DNA of 63,996 nucleotides, the filler included, from Craspedostauros australis (lineage: Eukaryota): the NCBI GenBank assembly GCA_030167865.1. It is 14 parts of 14 records of this genome, joined end to end, with 100 filler letters (N's around TTAATTAATTAA, not from the genome) between each part and the next. Parts side by side here need not be neighbours in the genome. Positions count along the whole stretch, not along the records: positions 24,937 to 32,523 come from JALAGF010004191.1; 13 more parts are not named here. The stretch is one strand, 5' to 3'. Below, one piece after another: positions 7,062-58,538 of this stretch. The translations under genes were made by a program, and so were the position numbers. The notes under the pieces are model-generated. The model worked only from the letters and a program-made list of their open reading frames with translations, had not been told where the DNA came from and searched no databases. The stretch's first letter is position 1; the number at the start of each line of letters is the position of its first letter.

Positions 7062-7161
7062 NNNNNNNNNNNNNNNNNNNNNNNNNNNNNNNNNNNNNNN
7101 NNNNNTTAATTAATTAANNNNNNNNNNNNNNNNNNNNNNNNNNNNNNNNNNNNNNNNNNNN
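7062..7161. other. Artificial contig linker (44 N + TTAATTAATTAA + 44 N)
   Basis: The same 100-bp linker recurs at 24837, 32524, 34786, 37155, 39965, 41601, 43237, 48034, 54635, 58389, 61256 and 62721. It places stop codons in all six frames. Confidence 0.98.
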
Positions 7162-16212: not shown

Positions 16213-19200
16213 CTACAGATCCCAAACGTCCACGGTGCCATCACCACTTCCATTGGCGCCATCGCCGGTATCCAACAGTTGGTTGGAAGATGTGGCGCTG
16301 GTCAGCGTGGGCTGGGAGATGCTGCGGTGGATGCCGCCATCGTCGTCATCGTCGGAGTCGTCCCAGTTACCGTCGGCGTTGGAGAAGAGGGCCAGGTCTT
16401 CCTCCAATGTCAGACCGGCTCTGGCGTCCGCGCCGCTGGCGCCTCCGTTGGCCTCATCCTCGTCGTCGTCATCTTTTCCCATGATGTGGCCTTCCGCGTT
16501 CTTGTTGGCCTTCTGCAGCTGCTTCTCAGCCGTTGCGAGCTGCGCCTTTTGCCGTGCCAGCACGTCCTTCAGCATCTCGGCGGCCGTCGTGCCACCGCGG
16601 ACTCGGCGCAGCTGTTCCGGATCGTAGCGTCCTCTGGGGATGCCTGGCTTCTCCATGTTGATGCCGTGGGCGTCGGCCCAGGCCAGCCACGGACCCCAAG
16701 TGTCGGGGTCGCCTCGTCTCAAAGTCTGATCATTGCCGATGACGACGAGCGCTCTGCGGGCACGCGTGAACGACACGTTGACACGACGCCAGTCGGACGT
16801 GAATCCGATGGCACCGTAGTCGTTGCTGCGCACGGCGGAAAAGACGACGGCCTCCTTCTCGCGTCCCTGGAATCCATCGACGGAGGCCACCTCGATGTAG
16901 GGCGGGCCGTTGTTCTGCGTGAGACGTCGGGTCATGCGACGGATCAATCGGGCCTGTGCGGAGTACGGTGTCACGACGGCGATGTCGGAAATGGCGCACT
17001 GACCGCCGCTCAGAAGCATGGCGACGACGTCGCAGGCCGCCTGCGCTTCGGCTTCGTTCAGCTTGCTCACTCCGTCGTCCATCTCCGTGCCCTTGACGGG
17101 CATGAAGGCGACGGGGAATTCCTCGCGCGGCCACGGGAATCCTGCCAGCGGACGACGCTCGGGTGCGCTGACACCGCTCAGCAGCTTGCCGCCGTAGAAC
17201 AGATCGGACGGGAACATGGCGATGGCGGGATGCATACGGTACTGCGTGTCCAACATGAAGGGCGGGACGCCGCACGCCACCATACGCGAGAAGAGGGGCA
17301 CGCCGTGTCCCTCCTCTTCGGCGCGCGTACTCAGCACCGTCGGGGGCAGCTGGCAGTGATCACCGACCAACACGAGCTGTCGGCAACCACGCATCAAGGG
17401 GACGAGGACGGCGGCTTCTGTGGCCTGCGTGGCCTCATCGATGAGGACGCGGTCGAACGTCATGGAGTCCAGGATGTCACCGCCGGAACCGATGCACGTG
17501 CAGCACACGATCTGTGCCTTCTTGAGCTGCTTGGCACGTTCCTTGTATCCCATGGCGCCGCCGCCGCCGTTGTAGCCTTGATCGGAGTAGGAGGAACTGG
17601 GCCTGTCGATGCAGTAGCGCAGGAGTTCGGGACGGATGGCTTCGGGACGACCCAAGCGCACGACACGCAGACCGGCCGCTGCGCATCCCTCGACGAGATT
17701 GTCGACGGCGATGTTGGAATCGGACGTGGCGAGGATGGGGGCCGGGTTCAATCCTCTGGCCATGGCGGACGATGAGAGACGGCCCCAGTGCTGCAGAATG
17801 CGAATGGCGACGGCCGTCTTACCGCTGCCTGGCGGACCTTGCACGAGGGTGAGGCGGTTGCTGGAGGCACCTTCGACGGCGAGACGCTGCGAGGCGTTGA
17901 GGCCGTTGAGGGAGTTGTATCGATCGAGGGCGTGCGCCGCCTCCGCGCGGATGGTGTCCTGATCGAGTCTATCCTCGCCGTTCTCGTCGTCGAAGGTCCA
18001 CGGGACGCCCTCGGCGCAGAGCGCGGCCGTGGAGGTCATCTCCCCCTTGGCCAGGCGTCTGCCACCGGGAGTCTGGTTCATGAATCGATCGATGTTCTCG
18101 TCCATGGCCGTGATGGCCTTGATGAGGAGGGGGCTGGGGCGCTTGGCATCCCTGGCCTTGGCGTGGCCCAATTCGTCGCGCGCGATGGGGCTGGAGATGG
18201 CGACGGCGGCCGATAGCTGTCGGTTGAAGCCCATGCGGTTGGCTAGCTTGTCGATGCGGTAGACGTTGCCTTCTACGTCTTCCGTGAGCATCTTGTGGAG
18301 GCGCGCGTTGCCCTTGTCCTGCAGACGCAGGACCATGGGGTTTGTGTTGCTGACGATGGCCTCGATCATGTTGCGGTCTAGACTTTCGGCGGACATGGGG
18401 TAGGGGCCGGCGTAGGGGAGGAGGGAGACGGCGTCACCGGCCTGGATGCCTCTGTTCTCCATGGAATCGGGCACGAAGATGCCCAGCTGCTCGCCGGGCA
18501 TGACGACGAGCTCGGTGGACTTCTTGCCGCGCTTGAGTCTTGCGTTGACGACGCAGACGGCAGAACGCACGAGGCGCTCGCAGGAGGCCGAGCAGATGCG
18601 GTCTCTGGCCGACATGACCTCCTCTAGGAATTCTAGCGAGATGCCGCGCACGATGCGCAGGAAGTAGGTGCGGCTGGTGGGCGAGTCGAACTCGGTGGCG
18701 ATGCAGAGGGCGTTGATCATGTCCGCCGCCGTGTAGGCGCTGCTGTTGCGCAGGTTCTGCGGCATGCAGGTGAGGATGCGCTCCGTCTGCGTGGCCGCGA
18801 GGGTGCCGGGCAGGGCGCAGTTGCGCAGGCAGTAGAGGGCGTCGTCGAACATGGCCGCCATGACGTATGCCTTCATGGCCGTCTCGAGGACGTTCGAGTC
18901 GAGGGCGTAGTTGTGGTTGTGCTTGTCGTGCAGGATCTCCCTCATGGTGTCTGGGTCGCTGTTCTCGATGCAGGCGCGGACGTCCTTGTTGAAGGCTCGG
19001 GCGGCCCTGCGGTTGGCCGCGTCGCTCTTGGAGAGGGCCTTGCCCTTCTTGTTGGACGACTTGTTTTTGGCGTGCTCCTTGCCGGTCATCTTGGTGACGC
19101 CCTTGTCCTGTTCGTCGAGCGAGGCGCTGGAGTCGTTGCGGCGCACGGCGACCAGGGTGGTGGCCGTGATGCTGACCTCCGTGGCCTTGAGTCCTGCGAT

Positions 19201-20328
19201 GGCGTCTGTGGTGGAGACCTCGTCGACCACCGGTGCTGGCTCCGGCTCATCGTCCTCCGCGGACTCCGATTGGTGCTGCTGCTTGTTCTTTCGGTTCTTC
19301 TTTCGGTTGTTCTGCCTCTTTTGCTTCTGACGAGGTTGCTTTTGGTTCTGTCCCTTGCCGTTCTGCTCCTGTTGCTCCTGTTGATTGTCGTCGCCGTTGT
19401 TGTGAGTGATATTGCTGTTGTGAGTGTTGTTATTGTTGCCAGTATTGTTATTGTTGCCATTGGCCTGCACAGCAAGCGACGGTTCCGGAGCATCCTCGGA
19501 GATGGTGGCCTCCTTCTTCTCATCATCAATGTTGTCAATGTCATCAAAGTCCTCCAATGCTGCGGCGGCCAGCCGCTCCGACAGCTGCTGCGCCTCTGCA
19601 TCGTGGTCTACGACTGCGACTGCGGCATCCGGCGGATGGGATTGTCTGGAGAGGATGATGGGAATGCCGTTGGCTTGCGACGTGCCATTGATGTTCATGT
19701 TGGAGGGAGGTGTGGGCAACGAGAGGATGGAGGGTGATACGAGCTGTGCGTTGTCACTCTTGTCACTGCTGTTGTTGTTGTGGTGGTTGGCATTGTCAGG
19801 TTCTGCGAGCGGGATCTCGTCCATGGATGGTCCATTGTTGACGGGAGCGCTGTATTTTTCCGAGTGGCGACCATTGTGGTTACCATTGCTGCGATGATTG
19901 CCATTGCTGTTGACATTGCCATTGCCACCGCTATGATGATGATTATCGCCATTGGCATGACCGTTGGTCTCCGCATCCTGGTCATCTCTGTCATTTCTGC
20001 GTCCCTTGCCGCGACCTCCTCTGCCACCGCGTCCTCTGCCATTGTTGCTGTTCCTGCCACGGCCTCCTCTGCCGCCACGACCGCCGCGTCCTCCCTTGTT
20101 GCTGTGTCTGCCACGACCGGACGACCGGCCTCTGCCACCACCTCTGCCAGATCGTCCTCCGCTGCTGCTTTCGATGCCATTCGGCGCGTCGCCATTCTGC
20201 TGCCGTGACGCATTGCGGCCGCCATTGCTGCGTCCTCGGCCACGTCCACCGCTGCGTCCTTTGTGGCCTCTGCCACGACCGCGGCCTCTTCCGCGGGCTG
20301 GTTTCGCAGCAGGAGCCGTTTCGCTCAT
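16213..20328 (-). CDS. UPF1/DNA2-NAM7-like SF1B helicase with an RGG- and Asn-rich disordered N-terminus
   Basis: Helicase motifs QGPPGSGKT, SNIAVDNL, IDEATQ, LVGDHCQLPP, QYRMHPAI, SVDGFQGREK and NVSFTRAR. No UPF1 CH zinc domain is visible. Confidence 0.9.
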   Translation of the reverse strand: MSETAPAAKPARGRGRGRGRGHKGRSGGRGRGRSNGGRNASRQQNGDAPNGIESSSGGRSGRGGGRGRSSGRGRHSNKGGRGGRGGRGGRGRNSNNGRGRGGRGGRGKGRRNDRDDQDAETNGHANGDNHHHSGGNGNVNSNGNHRSNGNHNGRHSEKYSAPVNNGPSMDEIPLAEPDNANHHNNNSSDKSDNAQLVSPSILSLPTPPSNMNINGTSQANGIPIILSRQSHPPDAAVAVVDHDAEAQQLSERLAAAALEDFDDIDNIDDEKKEATISEDAPEPSLAVQANGNNNNTGNNNNTHNSNITHNNGDDNQQEQQEQNGKGQNQKQPRQKQKRQNNRKKNRKNKQQHQSESAEDDEPEPAPVVDEVSTTDAIAGLKATEVSITATTLVAVRRNDSSASLDEQDKGVTKMTGKEHAKNKSSNKKGKALSKSDAANRRAARAFNKDVRACIENSDPDTMREILHDKHNHNYALDSNVLETAMKAYVMAAMFDDALYCLRNCALPGTLAATQTERILTCMPQNLRNSSAYTAADMINALCIATEFDSPTSRTYFLRIVRGISLEFLEEVMSARDRICSASCERLVRSAVCVVNARLKRGKKSTELVVMPGEQLGIFVPDSMENRGIQAGDAVSLLPYAGPYPMSAESLDRNMIEAIVSNTNPMVLRLQDKGNARLHKMLTEDVEGNVYRIDKLANRMGFNRQLSAAVAISSPIARDELGHAKARDAKRPSPLLIKAITAMDENIDRFMNQTPGGRRLAKGEMTSTAALCAEGVPWTFDDENGEDRLDQDTIRAEAAHALDRYNSLNGLNASQRLAVEGASSNRLTLVQGPPGSGKTAVAIRILQHWGRLSSSAMARGLNPAPILATSDSNIAVDNLVEGCAAAGLRVVRLGRPEAIRPELLRYCIDRPSSSYSDQGYNGGGGAMGYKERAKQLKKAQIVCCTCIGSGGDILDSMTFDRVLIDEATQATEAAVLVPLMRGCRQLVLVGDHCQLPPTVLSTRAEEEGHGVPLFSRMVACGVPPFMLDTQYRMHPAIAMFPSDLFYGGKLLSGVSAPERRPLAGFPWPREEFPVAFMPVKGTEMDDGVSKLNEAEAQAACDVVAMLLSGGQCAISDIAVVTPYSAQARLIRRMTRRLTQNNGPPYIEVASVDGFQGREKEAVVFSAVRSNDYGAIGFTSDWRRVNVSFTRARRALVVIGNDQTLRRGDPDTWGPWLAWADAHGINMEKPGIPRGRYDPEQLRRVRGGTTAAEMLKDVLARQKAQLATAEKQLQKANKNAEGHIMGKDDDDEDEANGGASGADARAGLTLEEDLALFSNADGNWDDSDDDDDGGIHRSISQPTLTSATSSNQLLDTGDGANGSGDGTVDVWDL

Positions 20329-21559
20329 TCTTCTTTCTTTGCCTGTGGCTGTTTGAGTGTTAGTGTGGATGTAGCGTTTGTATACGTGCCTTGCTCCTCA
20401 CTCTTGTGATTCCACTCTGCTCTACGCTGCTGATGAGTGCTTGTTGTAGTGATAGCTGATGTGCTTTGACCCTTGGCGTGGTTGGGTTGGGTTTGAGTTT
20501 TATGCCAATGTGACTCGTTGTCTTGCTGAGCTTGCTTCTGTTGATTGTGTTGCTTCTGTTGATTTGTGTTGGTTGACTGGAGCAATGCCAATCGTGTTGC
20601 TGAGCACTCGTGGCAAAGCTCTTGTTTCTCTTTCTCCTTGTGTTGTCTTGTTGAGTGTTGTCTTGTTGAGTGTTGTGCACAGGAGTGACGATCGACGAAC
20701 TAATACTCTAATCGGTTGGTTGGTTGGTTGGTTGGTCGGTCGGTCAGTCAGTCAAGTGGATGGATGGAGAGGATGGATCGTTGGATGGAATGAGATGAAC
20801 AAAGACGAAAGACTTTTCGTTCCCTCTTTTGCCTCCGAGGTTTGTTTGGTTTTTGCGCCTTCTTGCCCTCTCGCGCTTTCTCTCTTTGTTGCTTTGCTTC
20901 GTGGTGTTTCTTCCACGCTCTCTCGTACGACTACCTCGTCTCTGTGTGTGTGCGTCGCTTTTCCATCGTTTTCGTTTTTGGGTGGTGGTGACTCGTTCTT
21001 CTCCTCGCGCGTGACAAGAAGCAATGACACACACGCAGAAAGGCAAAAACCTCACACAGTCGTACTCAAAACACCGTGACGAGGCACGAATCTCAAACGT
21101 GGCCGGCTTTCGTCCACGAACGAGACATCTTCCGAGAACTAGTTGGTCATTTGTTCAAACGACTACATCGATTCCAACCGCAACGCAATTCTCCTTCCTC
21201 ATCTTTTTCATTCGACCAAGATTCTTGGAGCCGACGTCTCTCCATCCGACACCCAAGAGCAAGGGACGTGTTCTGGATTGGCACCTTGCAACTACAACAC
21301 AAACGCAAACGCAAATGCAACTGCGAGTGCCAGCGCGAGTGGAAATAGTCGTACCAGTAGGGCAAGGCATCCAATACGAGTGTTCCTCATCACCTCCTCT
21401 GCTCTATTCCCTTCTCCCTTCGCTTCACACCGTTCGTCATCCGATAGAGCACCGACAGTTGCCAAACACCTTCTCGCAATTGCTGTTGCAACACACTTCC
21501 AAAAGATCTTCCATTCCATCCATCCATCCATCCATCCATCCATCAATACAAGAGCCACA

Positions 21560-24768: not shown

Positions 24769-24941
24769 TAAAAATATTTGCATATGAAAGGAATATCGCC
24801 ATCCAAACCCTGACCTCCATCCAAAACGAGAAGTCTNNNNNNNNNNNNNNNNNNNNNNNNNNNNNNNNNNNNNNNNNNNNTTAATTAATTAANNNNNNNN
24901 NNNNNNNNNNNNNNNNNNNNNNNNNNNNNNNNNNNNTCGGG

Positions 24942-27062
24942 ATGGCCATCGGGCACTTCATCGCTGATGACCATACCTGTCTGGTCCGCCTCTCTGCCAA
25001 GTCGGAGGACGGCCACACTTTGCTATGTGCCAACCTGGCCGGTGAGTGCCGCCGCAGCAACCACCACGCCCTCCGTCGCGACCCAACCCGCCGGGGCCTT
25101 GCCGGGGTATATCAATGCCTCGACACCACTACGCTCGGCGGAGCGCCTCGTCGCGACCTCATCGAAGGCAGCCACCAGAGCCAAGCCGCGTACGACTCTA
25201 CGCGGGCCTCCGCATTACGCGATCTGGAAGCTGTCGGCCAAATGGACACCACCGCCCCTGCCGAACGCAACGACAGCGATGTCAAAACGGCGGGAGTGGT
25301 CGGCTTCGACCTCGACGTCAAACCAACGGGCCGTCCCGACACTGACCCGATGCCAACCCCACCGGTTCGCGTCAAGACCGACCCCGCGGCTCTGCCCCCG
25401 ACGCTCCATCATGCGCCGCCACCCAACCTCTCAACCATCCCGGCGGTGAAACCCGATCCCGCAATCCCACGCCCAGGTCTATCCTTCAGCCAGGGAACAA
25501 ACCTGTCTCCTCCTGCCTTGGCCACCACCGCAGCCGACGCACTCATGCATGTGGTGCGCCACCAAGCGTCTCTCAACCGAGAAGCAATGGAGGTGCACCA
25601 GCGCAAGACCGAGGAGACCACACACGCCATGCTGCGAGCTCTCGCAACCCAACAAGCACAGATCACACAGCTGATCCAACACGGGCGTCCCTCTACGCGC
25701 CCCACGCCTGTAACCTCTCCCTTCCCTGCTCCGGCTCCGGTCCCCACCACCGCGTGGTATGTGGCCATCGATGGCCGACGCCCAGGGGTGTACACCTCTG
25801 CGGCCGAAGCAATCTCCCAAGCCAGCCACGGGAGCGCAGCTCGCGTACTCCTCTGCGCAACCCACGCCGAAGCCGTAGCCTACCTCCAGGCATCTGCCCC
25901 AGCAGCGCCCAGCTACCACCAACCGGCCCCGCAATACCAGCCACACTCGGCCGAAGACACGCCCCCCGTATACCCACGAAACGCACCAGTCGAGTCCTCC
26001 CCGGCCTCTGACCCCCGTCCTGATCGCGCCCCGTCTGGCTCTGCCAGCATGGGCATCGAGAAGTTCTTAGGAGAAGACCCGTCAAAGGGAGACAAGAAGC
26101 TGATCTTTGGTGAGACCATCGACAACGAGCGCCGCATGCTCAAGCATCTGGCCCCACCGCACGCCAGCCACGAAGTCCAGACCGAGCTCGCTAAGGCAGC
26201 AATCGACGTTACCAGCCAACCAGGTAAGGTCACCGACGAACGCACCTCCATCGAAGAACTCGCCTCCGCCTTCGGAGACATCCGCAACCAGACCGCCCGC
26301 TCCGCCGGCCTCATCGCCGCAGACACCAACTGGCGCACCAAGACCCGCCACGCCCTCGGTCGCATCAAGTCCTCCGAAGACCTCAGCGAACTCGCGGGTG
26401 ACTTCAACAGCATCCGCGACGACGTGATGACTCGCTATCTCAACGATGTGAGTCACATCCTCCGCCACGGCTGCTACTCCGACGAGCAGATCACCATCTA
26501 CCAACAAGGCGGAGGATGGGTCGCTGTCCTCAAGCTCTTCCTCTCTTTCTACCACGAGCTCCTGCTCAAGGTCCAAGAGGAAGCGTTCAAGACCACGGAT
26601 GGATGGGACGAGTCAGCCTGTGTATACATCGAACACTACTCCAAGGCACTCTTTGACGCGCGCAACTTCGCCTCCTCGCGCAACCTCATGATCTTCCGCA
26701 CCTACATCATCGTGCGTGAAGGAGCGCGAGGCGGTTGGTGCAATCTCAAGATCCTTGAGAAGTTCCAACAACGCGCCGTCCGCACTCTCGGATCGAACCC
26801 GACACCAAAAGGGGACGCCGACAACTCTCCCTCCGATATGGGCAGAAAGAAGTGCAAGCACTGTGGCGGGTCCAACAAGGTCCACGAGATCCGGGACAGT
26901 GGGTGCCCCTTCGGGTACCTCTTCAAAAAGAAGGTGGCCATGGCAAAAGCCAAACAGGTCGCGAAGAGCGTCAACCAAGGCGAGAAGGCCGCCGACGTGA
27001 TCACACGCATTCTGCAGGAAGCAATTTCGAAGCGCGGAGGCGGAGAAGAGGATGATGCCTAA
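24942..27062 (+). CDS. ORF1, Gag-like, with an RNase H1 N-terminal (Cauli_VI) hybrid-binding domain and a CCHC-like knuckle
   Basis: WYVAIDGRRPGVYTSAAEA...ATHAEAVAYL at about 25755-25886, and CKHCGGSNKVHEIRDSGC near the C-terminus. The frame is open to the contig edge, so the ORF may be 5'-partial. Confidence 0.75.
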   Translation: MAIGHFIADDHTCLVRLSAKSEDGHTLLCANLAGECRRSNHHALRRDPTRRGLAGVYQCLDTTTLGGAPRRDLIEGSHQSQAAYDSTRASALRDLEAVGQMDTTAPAERNDSDVKTAGVVGFDLDVKPTGRPDTDPMPTPPVRVKTDPAALPPTLHHAPPPNLSTIPAVKPDPAIPRPGLSFSQGTNLSPPALATTAADALMHVVRHQASLNREAMEVHQRKTEETTHAMLRALATQQAQITQLIQHGRPSTRPTPVTSPFPAPAPVPTTAWYVAIDGRRPGVYTSAAEAISQASHGSAARVLLCATHAEAVAYLQASAPAAPSYHQPAPQYQPHSAEDTPPVYPRNAPVESSPASDPRPDRAPSGSASMGIEKFLGEDPSKGDKKLIFGETIDNERRMLKHLAPPHASHEVQTELAKAAIDVTSQPGKVTDERTSIEELASAFGDIRNQTARSAGLIAADTNWRTKTRHALGRIKSSEDLSELAGDFNSIRDDVMTRYLNDVSHILRHGCYSDEQITIYQQGGGWVAVLKLFLSFYHELLLKVQEEAFKTTDGWDESACVYIEHYSKALFDARNFASSRNLMIFRTYIIVREGARGGWCNLKILEKFQQRAVRTLGSNPTPKGDADNSPSDMGRKKCKHCGGSNKVHEIRDSGCPFGYLFKKKVAMAKAKQVAKSVNQGEKAADVITRILQEAISKRGGGEEDDA

Positions 27063-30000
27063 CCCTGTGTTTGTTTTGATTCTACCCTCTCTGTGCTCTC
27101 CACAACTCGTGCCAACCTCCACACCAACCAACACGGCCACTGACACCACGAACATCACGAACACCACAGACCCACACACCGATACCCAGACCGCTCCGAG
27201 CGACGAACTACTGAGCCATAAACTAGTAGACATCGTCGCAATATCCAAACAACAACTCCCCCAGTCCTCTGCTTGTTCTTTGCGTTATGCAACGCTGAAC
27301 TTCGGTCTGCACATGACTAGCAGCATCTGGCCAGCTTTCGAGCATGTCCTCTGCACCCACGACGATGGCCTACCCCAAGCCTTCCGAACCTACCCGGAAT
27401 CGACTCAATACCTCGGGGCGACGGCAAGAGTGTCCCACCGGATTTTGAACAAAATTCCAGTGGACTTTCTGATCGCTCACGGGGTACGAGGCACGGAATG
27501 GCGCGATTGGGTCCTCCACTGTCGAACCGATCTACGACCTCGACTAATCATCGAGATATGGACTGGGTCAGATATGGGGTGGGTACAACATGCAGCCTCT
27601 AAGCGAGAGTGTAAGCTCTGGACAGACCTCGGATATGGAACCCAGATCAAGACCCTACCCAATCAACGAATGGGCGGCGTGGTATCAGTGACGTACACGG
27701 TGGTGGTGAGGGCGGCAACAACGTGGACGGCATCTGGCATCGAATGGCCAGACCTCCAACCTGCATCTGAACGAAGCATGGCGAATTGTCTTCGTCACTG
27801 TGGAGTTCCGCGAAGATGCTATATAACGAAGAGCAACACCCAGCTGATCATCGACAGCGCGACATCCGCAATGCCGATGGACCGGCTCACCCTTATTCAG
27901 ACGGATAGAGGCGTCCGACGCCTCTTTCCAGACGAACTGGGGAAGGCCCTGGGTAGCTCGCTCCCCGGAGAGACGCTCAGGCATGTGAAATGGCGAGTGC
28001 TTTTCCACACTCCGTCACAACACCTGCTTGAGTACCTCTCCACACCGCTGGTGGTTTTGGCTACCCAAAACCACCAGCATCTCGAACACTCCCAACCCAC
28101 GACACGACCGACAAGACGACGACGACAACGACGACGACAACGACGACATCCCCAGCTCCAAACCAATCTCCAGGACGCCAACGACGACGAGCTATCATAC
28201 CAATGGGCCCCACCTGACCTATCTCCTGACGGCGACTGGCACCAACAACGCATACACAACCTACGAACAGCATGCGCACACTATGGTGACCGATCTCCGT
28301 CCTTATTCAAAGACGGAATCGAAGACTTACGCATCCATCGCACCAACTACACCGATACTCACCCTGATCCCAAACAGCTACGAGTGCTCTGGTGGGAATT
28401 TCCCCAACAACACTGGGACCACCTACGCGAAGGGAGTCCGATGAATTTTTTGGACACCCCGGAATTTGGCTATCACGACAACAACGACATGACTCCGGAG
28501 CAACAACAAGTGGCAGCAGACTTCGTTGACGAGCTTCTCAACCTTGGCGTCGTCGAACCGCAAGACCCCCTCCATCCAGTGGTCGTCAATGCTCCGTTAT
28601 TCGCCCTTCCCAAACCAATGCAACCTGATCAGTGGCGCATCATCGCCAATATGCGCGAGAACCGGGCGAACGAATTTATTGGGGCTGATCCGACCATCTT
28701 CCCAAAAAGCCGTGACATTTTGAAACAAATGTACCATGGTGGCTGGTCAGCGGTCGTTGACGCCTCAAAATATTTCTATCAATTCCGAACTCGCCCCGAC
28801 GAACGACGATTTCTCGGTATCCAGCACCCAATTTCGAAAGAAATGTACCAATACGCTGGACTACCGATGGGATCTAGCCAATCTCCGGCGATCGCATGCA
28901 AATTCGGCGCAGCCTTCCTCCGGCTACTGCGAGAACGCTCCACGCTCTACCAAGGGGACCACCAAGCCAACATGTGGTGGACGGCGTTCGACCAAGGACT
29001 CGACTACGACCACACTATGGGACAAGGAATTGTCGCCATCGGACCGGACGGACTACCAGCTGCCCTCGCATGGGCCCACTGCGATGACTTCATCATCCAT
29101 GGGCCCACCCGCCGCAAGACCACAGCAGCCCTTTCCGCATTCCTCGATCTATCGGTAGATTGCGGTCTGCTCTGCCACCCCGGCAAATTGACCCCACCTA
29201 ACCAGGTCGTCAAATACACAGGGCTCATCTTCGACACAACCGCCACGCCACGTCTCCGAATACCAACACTCAAACGAGACAAAATCGTCGCAGTGATGGA
29301 TTACGTCGAAGCCGCACCTACCCGAGTCTCCCGACTTGCCCTCGTGGTCCTGGCCGGCATGCTGGAGAGCGTGGCCGAAGCCACCCCATCGTACCTCGGC
29401 CGCAACTACCTGCGGTCCCTCTACGCGCTCGTACACCCAAGTGAGTGGGATCAACCCGACTTGCCATACTTCAGCTACACCACCATCACCCCGGCGGTCA
29501 TGCAAGACCTCCAATGGTGGCGCTCGGCACTCACCAACGACACAGCGCGGAGCGGTCGCGCAACTCGCACAGGCATCCTGGTGAGCAGCTTCGGCGACGG
29601 CAGTGGCACTGGCACTGGTGGGACCATCATCTTCCCGCATCAACCCTCTCACATGTGGATGGGCACCTGGTCCTCCCTCGTAGCAACCCGGCGTTCCTCC
29701 AACTGGAAAGAGCTACGCACTCTGCTCAGCACTCTGGAACAAGTGGCAAACAACCCCACATCCGCCGCAGACGTCTTCGGAGCCACTTTCTTTTACTTCA
29801 CGGACAACATGTGCACCTACTGCGTCGTCGACGGAGGCACCTCCACATCACCGGAACTACACAAACTGGTCTGGAAGATCAAGCAAGTCGAGCTTCGCCT
29901 ATCTTGTCACCTTCAGGTCATCCACATCCCCGGCACGGCCATCATCACAGAAGGAACCGACGGACTCAGCCGCGGGATATGGATCAACGCCGCCCATCAA

Positions 30001-30504
30001 CGACCGACGTCGACCCAAATCTTGGCCGCATGCCTAGCGCCGGCACCGCTCAAACAACATCACGTCGCCCACATCACCTCGCTCGCTTTCCCCGGCTCCC
30101 TCACACGTCCACTACTCTGTCGATGGGATCGCCCATGGGACTCACAGAAGTGCATGAACCACATCACCCTGTGGGCGCCACCTCCAGAACTGGCATACCA
30201 ACTGATCTACTTCCTGCTGGGGTGCTGGGCGGAACAACCAATGAGCACAGGATTCGTCATCCTCGTCCCAAGAGTTCTCCAACGCACCTACGTCCGTCTG
30301 TCCCGTCATCTCGTCCGGGTTGGGGTGTTCACCAACGACGATCTGCGTCTCTCCTCTACCTCTCCTCTCAACATTCCTCACCTACTCCTCCGTGTCTCTC
30401 CCCACACTCGTTCTCTCAACCCTCCCAGACTGGACTTTACTCCCCGCTCCAGGAATCGACGGCATCACCAACGGATCGCCGAGCATTTGCACGGGCTGCG
30501 CTAA
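27052..30504 (+). CDS. ORF2 Pol: degenerate C5-MTase-like domain + reverse transcriptase + RNase H + Dam-like MT domain
   Basis: RT: PLFALPK..WRIIAN, VDASKYFYQF, LPMGSSQSP, HCDDF, YTGLIFDT. RNase H: GDGSG, SNWKEL, FTDN, HIPG..TDGLSR. MT: LWAPPP..VILVP. Confidence 0.9.
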   Translation: MMPNPVFVLILPSLCSPQLVPTSTPTNTATDTTNITNTTDPHTDTQTAPSDELLSHKLVDIVAISKQQLPQSSACSLRYATLNFGLHMTSSIWPAFEHVLCTHDDGLPQAFRTYPESTQYLGATARVSHRILNKIPVDFLIAHGVRGTEWRDWVLHCRTDLRPRLIIEIWTGSDMGWVQHAASKRECKLWTDLGYGTQIKTLPNQRMGGVVSVTYTVVVRAATTWTASGIEWPDLQPASERSMANCLRHCGVPRRCYITKSNTQLIIDSATSAMPMDRLTLIQTDRGVRRLFPDELGKALGSSLPGETLRHVKWRVLFHTPSQHLLEYLSTPLVVLATQNHQHLEHSQPTTRPTRRRRQRRRQRRHPQLQTNLQDANDDELSYQWAPPDLSPDGDWHQQRIHNLRTACAHYGDRSPSLFKDGIEDLRIHRTNYTDTHPDPKQLRVLWWEFPQQHWDHLREGSPMNFLDTPEFGYHDNNDMTPEQQQVAADFVDELLNLGVVEPQDPLHPVVVNAPLFALPKPMQPDQWRIIANMRENRANEFIGADPTIFPKSRDILKQMYHGGWSAVVDASKYFYQFRTRPDERRFLGIQHPISKEMYQYAGLPMGSSQSPAIACKFGAAFLRLLRERSTLYQGDHQANMWWTAFDQGLDYDHTMGQGIVAIGPDGLPAALAWAHCDDFIIHGPTRRKTTAALSAFLDLSVDCGLLCHPGKLTPPNQVVKYTGLIFDTTATPRLRIPTLKRDKIVAVMDYVEAAPTRVSRLALVVLAGMLESVAEATPSYLGRNYLRSLYALVHPSEWDQPDLPYFSYTTITPAVMQDLQWWRSALTNDTARSGRATRTGILVSSFGDGSGTGTGGTIIFPHQPSHMWMGTWSSLVATRRSSNWKELRTLLSTLEQVANNPTSAADVFGATFFYFTDNMCTYCVVDGGTSTSPELHKLVWKIKQVELRLSCHLQVIHIPGTAIITEGTDGLSRGIWINAAHQRPTSTQILAACLAPAPLKQHHVAHITSLAFPGSLTRPLLCRWDRPWDSQKCMNHITLWAPPPELAYQLIYFLLGCWAEQPMSTGFVILVPRVLQRTYVRLSRHLVRVGVFTNDDLRLSSTSPLNIPHLLLRVSPHTRSLNPPRLDFTPRSRNRRHHQRIAEHLHGLR

Positions 30505-31951
30505 CGGCATCAACCGCCACACCACAGCACACCAATGTCATTTCGCTAACACCGGATTCACTCATGACGGCATCACATATCAACCATGTCATACACGGTA
30601 CCACAAACTATGCTGCCGAGTCGGACCTCCTTTCCGCACGCGCCTTCGCAATCACAAAGGTCTCGTTCTGCCAGCCAACCTACGCATTCTGGGTCTCTTC
30701 GTATGCGAAGCCTGCACGGTGCGAGTACACCTCCGACGCGAACTGATTGCCAGTCCAGCGGACCATCACCTACTCCGCCTCGAACGCATGCGGATCATCG
30801 ACCTCGCCCATAACTGGGCAGCGGGAACCCTGACCACATACGGGAGCAAGATCCAGGTGTTGCGGAGGTTTGGAATGCACTACGGCATCCCGACTCTACA
30901 ACTGCCCGATCTCCAAGCACCGCCCTACTCTGCAACGATCCCGATCATGTGGGCGCAAGAACACTACGCCACACAAACACCATCGCGCAGGGACCCACTT
31001 GGCGACACCACTCTCAAGTTCAGCACGGTCCGCGGCCTCCGCAGTGCCGCATCAGCTTTCTTGACATGGAACATGTGTCTCACCAATCCCGAACACGTCA
31101 CGCTCGACGCCAAGCAACGCCCCATCGTCGTGAATGAATGCCTTCCCACCGACCATCTCAGCTACTCTATGCTGACCCAGGGCATGCGGACGCGTCTTGG
31201 CGAAGACTCCAGGCCCTCCGCCGCCCTCCTTGCCCGACACGTTCACTTCATGGACCAATGCTTCCAACGCCAGTACCAACATGCGGCTACTCAACAACAG
31301 CGACAGACGGCGGCGATGGCAGGCGTCATCAACCTCGTGGGCTGGCTGGGCTGGCTACGAGCCTCCGAGGCCTTCGGCATCTCGTGGTCGGACGTCACGA
31401 TCCTTGAACCACGCAACGCAAGCAACAACGATCTCCCACCAAATACAGGCGCAGTCCTGCTACGCCTGGCTATGCAAACGAAGTCCGATCGCAGCCGCCA
31501 AGCCGATGTGGTCATCGCTTTCCGCTCGTCCTCAGGTCTCAGTCTCGGTGAATGGCTCCTCCGCGCACGGCGCGAACGAATTCAACAACTGCCAACTGAG
31601 CTGGTGGCACACCACCCCTCGGGACGACCATGGACGTCACACTTCTACCGTACGACGTTCACATACCCATCCCTGTTGGAGCAGCAGCAACGCGGCGACC
31701 CCTTTCTACGATCGGCCATCGGTGCACAGCAAATGCCCATTCCCACTCGGTTCTACTCCTTCCACATGTACCGACGAGGAGGACGCACACACGTCTCCAG
31801 GCAGAGATCGGGATGCATGCGAGCAGCCACCAAGCTCGAGGTCTCCGAACACGGCCGGTGGCGACGCCAACGGGCCAACGAAGATATGCCCACGGCATAC
31901 CTTCAGTGGCCACTTTCTGACCGGCTGGCAATCACCGCGCTCTGCATGTGA
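30320..31951 (+). CDS. ORF3 tyrosine recombinase with an N-terminal Cys/His zinc finger; true start unclear
   Basis: Catalytic set LRASE (R), TKSD (K), HMYR (HxxR), HGRW and PTAY (Y). The N-terminus has CTGC..C..CHTRYHKLC..FVCEAC. Confidence 0.88.
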   Translation: MGCSPTTICVSPLPLLSTFLTYSSVSLPTLVLSTLPDWTLLPAPGIDGITNGSPSICTGCANGINRHTTAHQCHFANTGFTHDGITYQPCHTRYHKLCCRVGPPFRTRLRNHKGLVLPANLRILGLFVCEACTVRVHLRRELIASPADHHLLRLERMRIIDLAHNWAAGTLTTYGSKIQVLRRFGMHYGIPTLQLPDLQAPPYSATIPIMWAQEHYATQTPSRRDPLGDTTLKFSTVRGLRSAASAFLTWNMCLTNPEHVTLDAKQRPIVVNECLPTDHLSYSMLTQGMRTRLGEDSRPSAALLARHVHFMDQCFQRQYQHAATQQQRQTAAMAGVINLVGWLGWLRASEAFGISWSDVTILEPRNASNNDLPPNTGAVLLRLAMQTKSDRSRQADVVIAFRSSSGLSLGEWLLRARRERIQQLPTELVAHHPSGRPWTSHFYRTTFTYPSLLEQQQRGDPFLRSAIGAQQMPIPTRFYSFHMYRRGGRTHVSRQRSGCMRAATKLEVSEHGRWRRQRANEDMPTAYLQWPLSDRLAITALCM

Positions 31952-32340
31952 TCGCCCGCCGCTCACTTTTTCGTTTGTTGTTCCTCTTTTTCTTCCACTT
32001 CTTTCTCTTTTGGGGGGGGGACCCTCTTTTTCGGCCGCCTACGACAGAAACAGGGGGTACCGAAAGGGAGATACTCTCCCTTTGCCAGGGACACCCGGCA
32101 AAATGGGTCGAATTAGTCTATTTTGGAGCCTACTGACCCAGCCAATCAAAACTCGTGGTTTTTGCGATGACAAAAAACCCCGCACGAGGAATGTTCTCGA
32201 ATCAAATTTTCGTTCTCAGGAACTCTTTGAAGGTCATAGCTTCCAGTTTTATTTATGGGAAAACCATGGAGAAACTCCGAAAATGACTCTGCAATACTGT
32301 GCCTTGATTTAATCCCGACCAGTCGTGCGAAAACCGAACC

Positions 32341-32520
32341 CTCGATTTTAATAGCCGTCATTCGATTTATTTATCCGTCATTCGATTTAAATATCCGTCA
32401 TTTGATTTATTTATCCGTCATTCGATTTTAATATCCGTTATTCGATTTATTTATCCGTCATTCGATTTTAATATCCGTCATTCGATTTATTTATCCGTCA
32501 CTCGATTTATTTAGTTATCA
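32341..32520 (+). repeat. 20-bp tandem repeat, 9 units, with two alternating variants
   Basis: TTCGATTTATTTATCCGTCA alternates with TTCGATTTTAATATCCGTCA up to the contig end. Confidence 0.95.
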
Positions 32521-32623
32521 ATCNNNNNNNNNNNNNNNNNNNNNNNNNNNNNNNNNNNNNNNNNNNNTTAATTAATTAANNNNNNNNNNNNNNNNNNNNN
32601 NNNNNNNNNNNNNNNNNNNNNNN

Positions 32624-36532: not shown

Positions 36533-37254
36533 GATAGCAGTGTTACAGTGTTGCAGTCTTGTGGTGCTGTCCAAGAGCAATGATGGGATGTGATCGTCGA
36601 TGCTCTGTTTGGATGGATGTCGTTGCAGCCCAAGCGGGGTTTTGTGATCGAAGTTTGTACATCAAAGAAAGGCAGGCCAAGCTGCTCGTCTGTTTCCACA
36701 GCACTCTGCCACTCGAATCCATGCGGATTGCAGCCGCAAATCGTGAAGCGTGACAGAACCGTCCCTGGAGATTCCTGTGTGGTACGGCTTCAAGTACTAA
36801 GTGCCAGTGTCATGATACAATGCAAAACGATGTATTCCAATGGAATGCGATGCAATGTGACTGTGGCGGAATCGTCCACCAGGCTCATTTTGTCACAGCG
36901 CATGCTCAGACATGAAAATGAAACTGCAGAACGCCCTCTCGCCCTCTCGCCCTCTCGCCATGAGCGTGATGCCTTGTTTGCGTTGGACGACGCTCGCGTT
37001 GGGAAGGATTGATCAGCGTGTCTGGAGATTCATGAGATTCTTGTAATCCACGATGATGCCAATGCATCACAGCGGAATTTCATCATCATGACAACGGTAC
37101 TCAACCTCGTGTCAAAGATTGTTCTCCGAACACATGATTGATCGTTGATGAGAGNNNNNNNNNNNNNNNNNNNNNNNNNNNNNNNNNNNNNNNNNNNNTT
37201 AATTAATTAANNNNNNNNNNNNNNNNNNNNNNNNNNNNNNNNNNNNNNNNNNNN

Positions 37255-39964
37255 TTTGAACCATACATCGCTGTCAGCGCGGCACGAGGTGAATCCGAGC
37301 GAGTCTCTGAGTGTCTCTGCGAGATGTGCCCTCCAAGCTGCGCCACTCGACTTCAGTCCGTAGAGTGCTCGACAGATGACGGCAATCTTTCCGGCGTCTT
37401 CTCCGAATTCAGGTCCACACGTCGTGTATACCTGTTCACGACATGGTGCATTCAGATAGGCGTTCATCACGTCGGCTGCTTGTACGTCGAGATCGTTGAG
37501 TGCTGCGAGAAGGAATGCGATTCGAACACTTTCGCGTGTGACCACACTCGCGTATGTGATGCTTGATGGCGTCTCCGTCATGTGGCCTCCGGCAACGAGC
37601 CGTGCCTTTCGTGTGAGATCGACCTTGATATCGAATATCATATGACATTCAATGTATGTGTGACCGATTGGTGGCTTGGTGTCTTCGCTCTTGATTGAAA
37701 ATGCTGGACGGACGTTCTTCATTTCCCGTTCGAGTGCCTTGCGCCATAAGTCGGTGCCTGTCTCCTCGTCAATAGCAAGTGCGCGTTGTACCGTCTTCGG
37801 CAACTCGAGGCCATATTTTTCGTTTCGTCTGAAGTATCGTTTCTGGTTTGCCATAATGATCCTGTTTCGTCGCTTCAAAGTGTAAGGAACCCACCAACGG
37901 AAAGCGGGCTCATGAGCAAGATTGTTGACGTCTGCGTATTCGGCTGTCTTGACTGGGTCGGCCTCCTTCGCGTCTCTCAAATGAATCCACGATGTGGACC
38001 CGTCCTTCCACAGTATACATAGCTTCCATCCCTTGGTTGACTTGGTTGTGGTGGTGTCGTTGACGTTTGCTGCCGTTGGTAGTTTCTTGTGATCGATGAT
38101 GTCTTCCATGAGTAGTGTCGTGTATCCGTCTTCATCCATCCGTGCGTATATGCTGTTCGCGATTTGGTTTGCGTTGTAGACTTCGCTGTGTCCGTCAATG
38201 AATTCAACCTCGTACATAGAAGTGTCAAGAAAAGGATTTGTGTGAGAACGACCAATCAACTGTCCGCTTGCATCGCGCTTGCGACGTTTCACGGTTCCGT
38301 ACTGCATGTCATCGCCAGTGGACAATAACACTCGTGCAGATAGATATCGATCGTATGCATCAGTCTCCGCATCTGCAGAATCTGACAATGGTTGCAAAGG
38401 TTGTTGTTGTTCGAGGAAAGCAATGTCTTCGGCGGTATCATCGACATCATCGCCGTCGTCTTCAGGTTGGATGCCTTCCATTCGATCTTTCCATTTCGAC
38501 TGTAGCTTGGACATGTAATCGGCCTGTCTCTGCTTGATCGCTTCACTGTTCTGGTCGGCAACGGACAAAGGAATCACAGAAGATTTAGAAACAACAACGC
38601 CGGATTGGGTGAGAACATACGAGCACATTGCCTCTCCCACGGTTCGTGAAGGACCGAGGTAGCGACCGAGATGCTTCGTATTCATTTCAGCATCTTGTGG
38701 ATTGATGTACCACACAAAGTCGAACCACCCAAATTCAGAAATGTGTGAGATGTCGGCTGTGTCACCAGTCAGAATCGTCGTTGGTGTCTGACCATGCAGA
38801 TCGTAGATTTGTAATGCAGTGTTGCTTCGGATCTCGGCGCAATACTCGAAGCAATAATCCCATAGATATGCTGGTGTGTTTGTGGATGTCATGAGTCGAC
38901 GGTAGTGACGTCTGAGCTCACGAATTGTCGCTTCAGCCTTGTTCTGATTGTGAATGTAGGCTTCGATTGGTCGGAGTGAGACCTGAGCCTTGAGAAGTTT
39001 CGCTCTGAAGTCGCCCTCGACAAGCTCTTTCGCATTATCTGGTATCATGGTGTGTGGAATTCCGTAGTCTCTGAACAATTCGTCAAGTGTCTGTGCAGCT
39101 TCGCGTCGGGCTGCCATTGGGTACACTCGGACCCAATGAAACGGCGTACAATAGATCATGGCACACTTGTTTCCGCGTATGGACTTTGTCTTCGCGATCA
39201 TCGTATCCGTGTACATCTTGGTGTTGAGGCGGCGATATCGAAGTTGCATTGCATATGGAACCAAACGACGTGTCCCCGTTGTCGTGCTGAAGTCTCTGAC
39301 AGCCAATTGTGTTGTGACGCCAAGCGTGCGCCGTGCTGCTTCAATACCGATGCGCCATCTTGCCGCCAGCTGCTCTGGCGTAACCGTCCCCTTTCGATTG
39401 GAGGTACGTGCATGTTGAATGGAATGTATTTCGCGTTGACATGTAAGTGATGAAATGTGTTGCATCTGCTTTTCTGACTCAAGCTTGGTACGAATGGACG
39501 CCTCGTCGTCCCCTGTCGACAGCTGGGCTGGATCCCAATACTGATCGGATGTCATATAGACGTGTACGCAATCATGGTCGGACCTAATTTCGTCCTGTGT
39601 AGGTTTGCGTATATGGAAGTATGAAACTGTACCATGTAGCTGAAGAGGAATATGCAGATCGTAATGTGAATGAAGAATAGAATGTGAGTGTGCATGGCGC
39701 TCATCCTCCGGCAACATCGTGAGAGGTGTTTCATTGATTGTAACGCCAGCCATGCGCAATTGGTGTGGACACAACAGCGGATGTTGTAAATTGTCGAAGT
39801 ATAACGATTGAGGAAAGAAGAGAATGTAAGTCGTGTACGAGATCGGATCATCATATGCAATTGCCGCTGTAACAATGGGTACGTTCTCGACGTCTCCCAA
39901 TGTGTCCAAAAATGGTGATGTTGTGACAGTTTGTGAGGTACGATGCACAATGTAAGCAGATGGT
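37255..39964 (-). mobile_element. Ty1/copia (CoDi-like) pol fragment: integrase, chromo-like domain, RT start
   Basis: Open frame across the whole contig. Integrase D (YTDTM), D (PDNAKE) and E (QNKAE) precede RT motifs KARLVAGGH, ADVMNAYL and ALYGLKSSG, which is the copia domain order. Confidence 0.92.
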
Positions 39965-40064
39965 NNNNNNNNNNNNNNNNNNNNNNNNNNNNNNNNNNNN
40001 NNNNNNNNTTAATTAATTAANNNNNNNNNNNNNNNNNNNNNNNNNNNNNNNNNNNNNNNNNNNN

Positions 40065-41600
40065 TACACTTTGAAGCGACGAAACAGGATCATTATGGCA
40101 AACCAGAAACGATACTTCAGACGAAACGAAAAATATGGCCTCGAGTTGCCGAAGACGGTACAACGCGCACTTGCTATTGACGAGGAGACAGGCACCGACT
40201 TATGGCGCAAGGCACTCGAACGGGAAATGAAGAACGTCCGTCCAGCATTTTCAATCAAGAGCGAAGACACCAAGCCACCAATCGGTCACACATACATTGA
40301 ATGTCATATGATATTCGATATCAAGGTCGATCTCACACGAAAGGCACGGCTCGTTGCCGGAGGCCACATGACGGAGACGCCATCAAGCATCACATACGCG
40401 AGTGTGGTCACACGCGAAAGTGTTCGAATCGCATTCCTTCTCGCAGCACTCAACGATCTCGACGTACAAGCAGCCGACGTGATGAACGCCTATCTGAATG
40501 CACCATGTCGTGAACAGGTATACACGACGTGTGGACCTGAATTCGGAGAAGACGCCGGAAAGATTGCCGTCATCTGTCGAGCACTCTACGGACTGAAGTC
40601 GAGTGGCGCAGCTTGGAGGGCACATCTCGCAGAGACACTCAGAGACTCGCTCGGATTCACCTCGTGCCGCGCTGACAGCGATGTATGGTTCAAACCTGGA
40701 GAGACGAGCGATGGGTCAAAGTATTACGAGTACATCCTCGTGTACACTGACGACATACTTGCCATATCCAAGGACCCGCGCGCTTTGCTCTCACAAATTG
40801 ATTCTTTCTTTCTACTCAAACCCAAATCCATCGGTCCACCAACATCATACCTCGGTTCAACCATTGCTCCCTTCCATCTGAAAGCAGAGCCTGAGCGGCC
40901 CAAGTGGAGCATGGGATCACAACGCTACATTCGAGAAGTCATCAAGATGGTCAAACACTGGCTCGAAGAACGTGGTGGCAGATTCCGCAACACTGCGTCA
41001 TGCGTCCTGCCAAATGGATATCGTCCAGAACTTGACTCGACATCCTTGTGTGATCCTGAAGAGATGAACTACTACCAACAGATGATCGGAATATTGAGGT
41101 GGATCGTTGAGCTGGGGCGAATCGACATATGCTGCGAAACGAGCATGATGTCAACATACTGTGCAGCGCCACGAACTGGTCACTTGCGTGCTCTCTTTCA
41201 CATCTTCTCTTATTTGAACTCACATGACCGATCACGACTGGTCTTTGATGACGCCTACATCGAAAAGGGCAACATCCAGACTCCGGATTGGACTTCTTTC
41301 TATCCTGATGCACGCGAACTGATACCTCAAGACATGCCGGAACCGAGAGGCAAGGAAGTGCAAATGACGTGTTTTGTTGATGCGGATCATGCTGGTGACC
41401 AAGTCACTCGCAGATCACGCACAGGTGTTTTGCTTTGTTTAAATTCCTCACCCATCCTATGGTACAGCAAGAAGCAGAACGGCATCGAGACTTCTACATT
41501 TGGTTCAGAATTCACAGCACTCAAGACAGCCATGGAGATTGTGATTGGCATGAGATACAAGCTTCGAATGATGGGTGTTCCTTTGGATGGACCAGCCGAC
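40065..41600 (+). mobile_element. Ty1/copia RT-RNase H fragment with an intact frame
   Basis: VYTDD, GRIDI, FVDADHAG..TRRSRTG and SKKQ..ETSTFGSEF. Its first ~630 bp are the reverse complement of 37255-37885. Confidence 0.93.
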
Positions 41601-41700
41601 NNNNNNNNNNNNNNNNNNNNNNNNNNNNNNNNNNNNNNNNNNNNTTAATTAATTAANNNNNNNNNNNNNNNNNNNNNNNNNNNNNNNNNNNNNNNNNNNN

Positions 41701-54634: not shown

Positions 54635-54757
54635 NNNNNNNNNNNNNNNNNNNNNNNNNNNNNNNNNNNNNNNNNNNNTTAATTAATTAANNNNNNNNNN
54701 NNNNNNNNNNNNNNNNNNNNNNNNNNNNNNNNNNATCACACGATCTGAATTGCAACG

Positions 54758-58388: not shown

Positions 58389-58538
58389 NNNNNNNNNNNN
58401 NNNNNNNNNNNNNNNNNNNNNNNNNNNNNNNNTTAATTAATTAANNNNNNNNNNNNNNNNNNNNNNNNNNNNNNNNNNNNNNNNNNNNCATCATCATCGC
58501 AATCACCGTCGCCATTGGAGCGGAGGGATCCGTACCCC

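Follow-up and report, generated by a model that had tools for sequence, protein, structure and literature searches.

That some retrotransposons carry active DNA methyltransferases was discovered only recently and has attracted much discussion. In SymbioDIRS-Dnmt3 of Symbiodinium, a C5-cytosine DNA methyltransferase (C5-MTase) and a reverse transcriptase (RT) are combined in one Pol open reading frame (ORF), with a tyrosine recombinase encoded by a separate ORF (de Mendoza et al. 2018, PMC5890265; this and the other articles cited below were covered in part). KnitGypsy-Dnmt3 and SymbioLINE-Dnmt are further retrotransposons with captured DNMT domains, and de novo CG methylation in yeast has been reported for retrotransposon DNMTs (PMC5890265). 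The EpiLTRs combine an adenine with a cytosine methyltransferase (bioRxiv 10.64898/2026.05.21.726589). Here, a stretch of 63,996 nucleotides (nt) from the diatom Craspedostauros australis (GenBank assembly GCA_030167865.1) was analysed, the whole of which is referred to as the window, and within it a retroelement on the contig derived from JALAGF010004191.1. The Pol protein of this element (ORF2) begins with a domain for which an initial annotation, made from the sequence alone, had proposed a degenerate C5-MTase fold. The analysis makes it very probable that this domain is a dead C5-MTase homologue that has been kept by selection.

As in SymbioDIRS-Dnmt3, the C5-MTase domain shares the Pol ORF with RT, and its location at the N-terminus is no surprise, given that the domains are ordered differently in one of the two SymbioDIRS-Dnmt3 arrangements. 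The SymbioDIRS-Dnmt3 domains are, however, recognisable DNMT3-type enzymes, whereas the window copy is invisible to Pfam and the catalytic Pro-Cys is found in 0/183 members of its family. Unlike SymbioDIRS-Dnmt3, moreover, the family is diatom-linked, has a full-size recognition lobe, and finds its best shape matches in M.HhaI, M.MpeI and Dnmt2 as opposed to DNMT3. KnitGypsy-Dnmt3, SymbioLINE-Dnmt and the EpiLTRs resemble the present element in having captured DNA methyltransferase domains, but belong to other classes (Gypsy, LINE and chromovirus-like), carry domains described as catalytically conserved, and are hosted by a charophyte, a dinoflagellate, Cymbomonas and Euglena rather than by diatoms. 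No word beginning with diatom, stramenopile or haptophyte occurs in the main text of bioRxiv 10.64898/2026.05.21.726589, section 5 of which names a Haptophyta-Heterokonta DAM clade. Elements of the DIRS order (DIRS1, PAT-like and Ngaro) have gag, RT-RNase H and a recombinase-like ORF in common with this one, but the covered parts of the survey by Piednoel et al. (2011, PMC3266345) describe no N-terminal methyltransferase fold among them. A literature search, with supplements outside its scope, brought up no account of tyrosine-recombinase retroelements with a catalytically dead C5-MTase fold and no description of such elements from diatoms, and no such domain is described in the covered parts of Hoguin 2023, Piednoel 2011 or Maumus 2011.

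The evidence for the fold comes from the family, since the window copy is silent when taken alone. On its own, it matched no Pfam domain and, by phmmer, no sequence of a solved structure; a word-based homologue search with residues 55-345 yielded 0 of 1249 candidates, and AlphaFold prediction from the single sequence gave an unusable fold with a predicted local distance difference test score (pLDDT) of 34.5. The best Atlas score of the domain, 0.78 to a PF00145 cluster, lay below the counting level and served as a lead only. Relatives were searched for exhaustively by phmmer with the same residues against 1.84 billion cluster representatives, which returned 167 relatives at E ≤ 1e-3, including 43 at E ≤ 1e-10 (best 2.2e-26). 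The query was aligned with 67 of the 150 relatives listed (those of at most 480 amino acids (aa), mostly of higher rank) to give alignment A1 of 68 sequences; an RHS/FG-GAP repeat protein (P0139) was judged a spurious match and excluded from the alignments. When compared with 177,635 solved-structure sequences, the A1 profile gave 13 matches at E ≤ 10, all of them M.HhaI or M.HaeIII, with a best E-value of 0.0011 and a value of 0.0066 for wild-type HhaI. The match was colinear, profile positions 105-180 corresponding to HhaI 107-183 (motifs VI-VIII) and positions 238-281 to HhaI 271-315 (motifs IX-X). PF00145 was matched by 8/68 members of A1 and was the sole Pfam family matched by more than one, two members exceeding its gathering score of 22 bits (P0045 at 27.7 and P0055 at 27.2). 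These two, together with P0093, P0074, P0112 and P0046, have a more canonical motif VII-VIII region (e.g. G-S-P-V-x-Q-x-R), score at or near the PF00145 threshold, and help to bridge the gap from the family to ordinary C5-MTases; P0055, P0074 and P0093, the three of them inspected in the alignment, also lack Pro-Cys behind the motif IV strand.

An AlphaFold2 model computed from the 68 family sequences of A1 had a pLDDT of 89.7 and a predicted template modelling (TM) score of 0.87. Foldseek ranks 1-50 with this model (34 rows with repeat chains of an entry omitted) consisted entirely of C5-MTases or close kin, the latter including Dnmt2 and a C5-carboxymethyltransferase. M.HhaI came first (E 1.4e-12; TM 0.72/0.65 over ~330 columns for 2zcj), followed by Dnmt2, M.HaeIII, M.MpeI, Dcm-like proteins and DNMT3A/B. 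In a VIA-align comparison with 48,161 representative chains, ranks 1-19 were likewise all C5-MTases, with Z-scores from 20.6 to 12.5, M.HhaI being aligned over 261 residues at a root mean square deviation of 3.1 (Z 20.6); generic Rossmann methyltransferases reached Z ≤ 9.3 and matched the Rossmann half only (model residues 20-170). Of all solved structures, M.HhaI (10mh, 2zcj and other entries) comes nearest to the domain, and equivalents of its E119 and R165 are kept in the family, but identity is only 12-13% and the Cys81 loop, FxGxG and the motif X GN are absent. Judged by the model, with which the family profile, Foldseek and VIA agree, residues 75-334 of Pol form a genuine C5-MTase fold, strongly diverged but with the two lobes both present. 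The initial annotation was therefore right in placing a degenerate C5-MTase fold at the N-terminus of an intact Pol ORF, and the seven motif strings from which it had argued, RRLFPDELGKALG among them, all lie within ORF2 at the places it gave (Table 1). A search of the window by tblastn for a second copy of the domain found the self match alone to be significant, all others having E ≥ 0.61.

The catalytic features were examined in 244 family sequences (235 unique) aligned to a hidden Markov model (HMM) of the domain. The motif IV strand is well kept (P-V-D-L-L-V-V-D/E). The catalytic loop behind it is variable, with a family median of 17 aa as opposed to 8 (HGVRGTEW) in the window copy. Pro-Cys occurs in this loop in none of the 183 unique members with both flanks, as the initial annotation had claimed for the present copy; 30/183 have a Cys of any kind in the loop, and no Cys column is conserved. 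The same annotation had reported that the ENV and QxRxR residues were also absent, which holds in part. The ENV glutamate is kept in 152/192 members and as E168 in the window copy (LIIEIW), only the N and V being replaced (ExW), whereas QxRxR is indeed gone from the window copy, which has V and Y at the places of R163 and R165 (VSVTYT). The family consensus nevertheless keeps Q-x-R, the HhaI R165 equivalent being present in 151/199 members and the R163 place being mostly Q. At the place of motif I, where the S-adenosylmethionine (SAM) site would begin, the family consensus is (Y/F)G-T-(I/V)-(G/D)-x-G-L and not FxGxG; at the place of motif II, behind strand 2, no acidic residue is conserved; and the GN columns of motif X are occupied by variable polar residues (R/N/D/G and R/H/Q/N). 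To our knowledge, all C5-MTases need the catalytic cysteine. From these alignments the domain looks catalytically dead across the lineage, and we infer that SAM binding has been lost.

Conservation is highest elsewhere. Nine of the 22 columns conserved at ≥90% fall between motifs VIII and IX, in RPMxNLLxPxG and DPMP, i.e. within the equivalent of the target-recognition domain, which is normally the variable part in ordinary C5-MTases. The window copy has IEWP, RSMANCLRHCG and SAMP where the family has W-x-W-P, RPMxNLLxPxG and DPMP. Motif IX is near invariant in the family (R in 149/160 and E in 153/157). The first ~290 folded residues of Pol represent a very divergent C5-MTase homologue in which both lobes have been kept, namely the Rossmann lobe with motifs IV, VI, VII and VIII and the recognition lobe, together with motifs IX/X, and in which the nucleophilic Pro-Cys loop and, by the positional assignment, the conserved SAM-site residues (motifs I, II and X) have been lost lineage-wide. 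Because the recognition lobe is the best conserved part, roughly three in four members keep the equivalents of E119 and R165, and the loop is variable or deleted, a role in nucleic-acid binding suggests itself, for which the ancestral DNA-binding face of the enzyme may have been reused without catalysis. We hold it modestly probable, on the pattern of residue conservation, that the domain acts by binding nucleic acid, and favour with moderate confidence its description as a non-catalytic, nucleic-acid-binding pseudo-methyltransferase module of Pol. The invariance of the recognition lobe would point to one ligand for all members, most plausibly the complementary DNA (cDNA) of the element or its junction, or else the DNA on which the recombinase acts as its target.

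The initial annotation had suggested that the module could bind DNA or CpG, or serve in targeting or anti-silencing. In M.HhaI, E119 and R165 hold the flipped cytosine. The domain could feasibly be a base-flipping reader, in which the retained cytosine pocket and the conserved recognition lobe bind one DNA feature without modifying it, although this more specific proposal is tentative and rather unlikely. If it were true, the reader might guide the recombinase to its integration site, or shield the cDNA or new insertions from host methylation; in the latter case it would be a transposon-encoded anti-silencing device made from the fold of a silencing enzyme.

A role through protein partners is more doubtful still. 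It is established that DNMT paralogues without catalytic activity can work by partnering other proteins (DNMT3L, DNMT3B3 and plant DRM3), and a comparable regulator or decoy might pair with a host DNMT and either blunt or recruit methylation of insertions. Retention of the fold together with loss of Pro-Cys and the SAM motifs would fit such a role. DNMT3L, DNMT3B3 and DRM3 are likewise dead C5-MTase folds selected for a non-catalytic role, but they are host genes that partner active paralogues, whereas the present fold is part of a retroelement polyprotein and stands nearer to monomeric bacterial-type enzymes. By VIA, such monomeric enzymes are nearest in structure together with Dnmt2, at Z 19-21, with DNMT3 lying further off at Z 15.4. 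That a decoy of this kind could be of use to a diatom element is consistent with the overexpression of transposable elements upon loss of DNMT5a in Phaeodactylum (Hoguin et al. 2023). However, conservation of the recognition lobe and retention of the cytosine-pocket residues argue for an interface with nucleic acid rather than with protein.

The domain is a fixed part of the lineage. Long relatives share the full Pol layout (MTase fold, linker, RT, RNase H-like part and C-terminal domain) at 33-40% identity, and RVT_1 was found downstream of the domain in 18/39 relatives scanned. When the RT-to-C-terminus part (aa 380-1150) was used as the only query, 258 proteins were matched at E ≤ 1e-10; among the 114 new matches listed, all 88 proteins of at least 1000 aa have the domain (nearly complete in 83), even though their RT-to-C-terminus parts are no more than 41-52% identical. 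In metagenome contigs, alignment A2 (17 of the long relatives) located 74 loci, whereas 0/143 pattern matches were confirmed when a single relative (P0001) was the sole query. The domain is present in 47/48 loci with at least 1000 nt upstream of the linker or RT, with one real miss (L061; the script counted 46, the other miss, L007, being an artefact), and lies inside ORFs of at least 700 aa in 30 loci. In 14 loci, gag, the MTase fold, RT, the C-terminus and ORF3 follow in the same order, that of L028 being circularly permuted. One relative is annotated as "unnamed protein product [Cylindrotheca closterium]", a diatom; another (P0403) is labelled Plesiomonas shigelloides, from a bacterial metagenome-assembled genome, which is probably a binning error.

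Ratios of nonsynonymous to synonymous substitution (dN/dS), calculated by the Nei-Gojobori method for five pairs of loci, were 0.31 in the domain and 0.08 in the RT-RNase H-C-terminal part for L034/L035, 0.36 and 0.09 for L034/L038, 0.11 and 0.05 for L009/L015, and 0.14 and 0.03 for L012/L017; for L044/L047 the domain gave 0.065, with dS near saturation, and the remaining part was saturated. By these ratios, purifying selection acts on the domain, at a half to a quarter of the strength with which it acts on the polymerase core. Conservation in a diatom retroelement lineage had been anticipated when the fold was proposed, and is borne out by the 88/88 listed proteins with the domain, by a recombinase-like ORF3 in 34/34 loci, by the values of 0.065-0.36 in all five pairs, and by the Cylindrotheca relative together with the Bacillariophyta labels of the ORF3 Atlas clusters described below.

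A domain that serves solely as a structural scaffold of Pol, assisting folding, multimerisation or the positioning of RT and recombinase and kept for its bulk without a specific ligand, would account for the in-frame fusion to RT in all 88 full-length relatives listed, for the conserved linker directly behind the domain, and for a dN/dS that is below 1 yet above that of RT. We consider this improbable, as it leaves unexplained both the near-invariant, surface-type motifs RPMxNLLxPxG and DPMP and the kept equivalents of E119 and R165. Persistent activity towards DNA, cDNA or RNA through unconventional residues, for which the complete fold, the kept ENV glutamate and R165 equivalent, and the active DNMTs known within retrotransposon Pol proteins (PMC5890265) might speak, is very improbable given that Pro-Cys, a conserved loop Cys, FxGxG, the motif II acid and the motif X GN are all absent and that the loop of the window copy has 8 residues. 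It is just as hard to credit that the domain is a decaying relic of a once-active captured DNMT with no present function, as the lost catalytic residues, the rather divergent window copy and the dN/dS of the youngest pairs might suggest, in view of its presence in every full-length relative listed at so low an RT-to-C-terminus identity, its uninterrupted ORFs of ~1100 aa in 30 loci, dN/dS values of 0.065-0.14 in the older pairs and its 22 columns conserved at ≥90%.

Several observations nonetheless weigh against a conserved pseudo-methyltransferase module. An hhalign comparison of A1 with 12 enterobacterial Dcm proteins was non-significant (Probab 0.70, E 0.081), if colinear from motif VI to motif IX; the Dcm profile was shallow because the Dcm relatives listed were orthologues at ≥74% identity only. 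The places of the SAM-site motifs I-III derive from predicted topology and HMMER alignment and not from residue-level superposition. The two youngest pairs have a dN/dS of 0.31-0.36 in the domain, which exceeds the RT value three- to fourfold. Retention of the E and R could reflect a structural role instead of base binding. In the window copy itself, Q-x-R-L, GP..K and DPMP of the family are missing and the loop is cut to 8; it keeps 86% of 35 strongly conserved columns, where the family median is 94%, and so ranks 27th from the bottom among 134. Having diverged and lost conserved residues, this copy may be under weaker constraint.

Table 1. Features of the retroelement in the C. australis window; residues are numbered along Pol (ORF2)
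Feature	Window position	Strand	Pol residues	Basis or remark
Contig holding the element	24937-32523 (7587 nt)			Artificial N44-TTAATTAATTAA-N44 linkers at both sides
ORF1, gag-like, 706 aa	24942-27062	+		C-terminal half conserved (tblastn, 22-29% identity, 24 loci)
ORF2 (Pol), 1150 aa, no internal stop	27052-30504	+		17 long relatives align end to end, 33-40% identity
Predicted C5-MTase-fold domain	27274-28053	+	75-334	Model, Foldseek, VIA, profile
Motif I place, strand 1 and loop (LRYATLNFGLHM)	27280-27315	+		Position in predicted topology
String LRYATLNFG			77-85	
Motif IV strand IPVDFLIA and 8-residue loop HGVRGTEW	27454-27501	+		HMM alignment
String IPVDFLIAHG			135-144	
Motif VI equivalent RPRLIIEIW	27535-27561	+		E168 aligned to HhaI E119
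String RPRLIIE			162-168	
Motif VII (WTDLGY) and motif VIII equivalent (MGGVVSVTYTVVVR)	27619-27711	+		Family Q-x-R-L lost in window copy
String DLGY			192-195	
String MGG..TVVV			207-219	
Target-recognition-domain equivalent	27739-27876	+		Most conserved motifs of the family
Motif IX (GVRRLFPDELGKALG) and motif X-like helix (HTPSQHLLEYL)	27910-28038	+		Aligned to HhaI 271-315
String RRLFPDELGKALG			289-301	
String HTPSQHLLEYL			319-329	
Conserved linker, MTase fold to RT	28198-28416	+	383-455	WxPPDLS..W, HRxNY, LWWEFPxxHW; several invariant residues
RT core (CDDF at 29080-29103)	28696-29229	+	549-726	Pfam RVT_1
RNase H-like part (GDGSGTGTGG ... YFTDN ... TDGLSRG)	29593-29976	+		Motif and position only
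C-terminal Pol domain (LWAPPPE ... VILVPR ...)	30049-30501	+		Conserved in 24/24 aligned (A5)
ORF3, recombinase-like, 387 aa	30788-31951	+		Motif pattern, language-model lead
20-nt tandem repeat array, ~11 units, 3' of ORF3	32302-32523			Truncated by contig end

In the remainder of Pol, the RVT_1 match (E 4e-5, 23.9 bits) is the sole Pfam match in ORF2 and lies under the cut-off of 29.6 bits, which relatives exceed (P0040, for example, at 38.1 bits). Behind the RNase H-like part, where a Dam-like methyltransferase would be expected in DIRS1 and PAT-like elements, none was detected by Pfam or profile. The C-terminal domain found at this place has the family pattern W-x-P-P-P-E-x-A-R ... P-R in alignment A5 (24 sequences). 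Pfam assigned no methyltransferase family to the C-terminal domains of any of the 24 members, and the A5 profile matched no methyltransferase among solved structures, the best match being CENP-T at E 0.49. In the DIRS-type adenine methyltransferases the pocket is formed by Asn-Pro-Pro flanked by aromatic residues (bioRxiv 10.64898/2026.05.21.726589), whereas the C-terminal family has PPPE at that place. The stretch LWAPPP..VILVP, which had been read as a Dam-like remnant, is therefore real as a sequence (30169-30273), but its likeness to Dam was confirmed by neither Pfam nor the solved-structure profile. In the absence of a methyltransferase match in the C-terminal domain, the accompanying claim that the element has two MTase-like modules is not accepted, and a second module at the Pol C-terminus stands as an open suggestion.

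A homologue of ORF3 lies downstream of Pol in 34/34 loci with room for it. The ORF3 family (alignment A4, 17 sequences) has invariant R191, K232, R329, H355, W358 and Y371, an order that we take to be that of the tyrosine recombinase catalytic pattern. Atlas placed ORF3, with scores of 0.97-0.98, beside eukaryotic clusters labelled Bacillariophyta, and its neighbour clusters also carry Phage_integrase (13%), Phage_int_SAM_1 (11%) and ALOG + Phage_integrase (93%/86%). ORF3 itself gave no Pfam match and no solved-structure match by profile. From the invariant residues and both sets of clusters, it is likely but not proven that the element is a tyrosine-recombinase retroelement. The order in the family is gag, Pol (MTase fold, RT, RNase H and C-terminal domain) and a recombinase-like ORF. 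PAT-like and Ngaro elements likewise have gag, pol and recombinase in this order. The window contig, in which the element is probably cut at both ends, showed neither inverted terminal repeats with an internal complementary region nor split direct repeats. A relative 38% identical to the present element (L003) has a 43-nt direct repeat (86% identity) at 257-299, upstream of gag, and at 7769-7811, just downstream of ORF3, and this pair may belong to a set of split direct repeats such as PAT and Ngaro elements have. L003 also has a 27-nt array of ~15 units (8026-8436) that, like the 20-nt array of the window copy, lies 3' of ORF3, and a short-period array at this place may be a structural trait that the two elements have in common. 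Three of the related contigs have identical ends (L003, 1-127 and 10068-10194; L023, 1-127 and 10222-10348; L017, 1-111 and 9041-9151). They correspond to circular-type assembly units of 10067, 10221 and 9040 nt, respectively, and in L028 gag lies behind ORF3; such contigs could reflect copies in tandem, terminal repeats that were collapsed, or the element in a circular DNA form.

On the window contig, the three ORFs are co-oriented on the + strand. A Pfam scan of ORF1 found no family. ORF1 begins 5 nt past the start of the contig and so may be cut at its 5' end; linkers flank the contig on both sides, no host DNA is present, and the element is probably truncated at both contig ends. At 27040-27062, ORF1 ends in GAT GAT GCC TAA, inside which lies the ATGATG start of ORF2 in another frame, and the overlap could be a site of termination-reinitiation or frameshifting.

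The window as a whole consists of contigs chained by N44-TTAATTAATTAA-N44 linkers (7062-7161, 24837-24936, 32524-32623 and ten further joints), with an N60 run at 63219-63278. As these are joined contigs and not one molecule, neighbouring genes provide no genomic context for the element. Two other contigs contain Copia-type RVT_2 fragments of unrelated retroelements (37207-40008, - strand; 40017-41648, + strand). Ordinary host genes with long open frames lie on further contigs (54749-56239, 56992-58440, 58437-60533 and 16213-20397, the last on the - strand), and the host genes in the window include two cytochrome P450s, a TLC ATP/ADP transporter and an SF1 helicase (AAA_11/AAA_12).

Compared with the known active retrotransposon DNMTs, what is novel here is a domain that is degenerate throughout, invisible to Pfam in most members, equipped with a full recognition lobe, and borne by a diatom-linked lineage. 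Its chemistry appears to have been lost, yet the methyltransferase fold is very probably maintained by selection as a constant component of Pol in a marine retroelement lineage that is abundant in metagenome assemblies. The family suggests that surveys based on PF00145 undercount methyltransferase-derived modules in mobile elements. It also provides a concrete example, open to experiment, of a pseudo-enzyme that is carried by a transposon and descends from the main silencing enzyme of the host, and may provide a handle on how DNA is recognised by the tyrosine-recombinase retroelements of diatoms.

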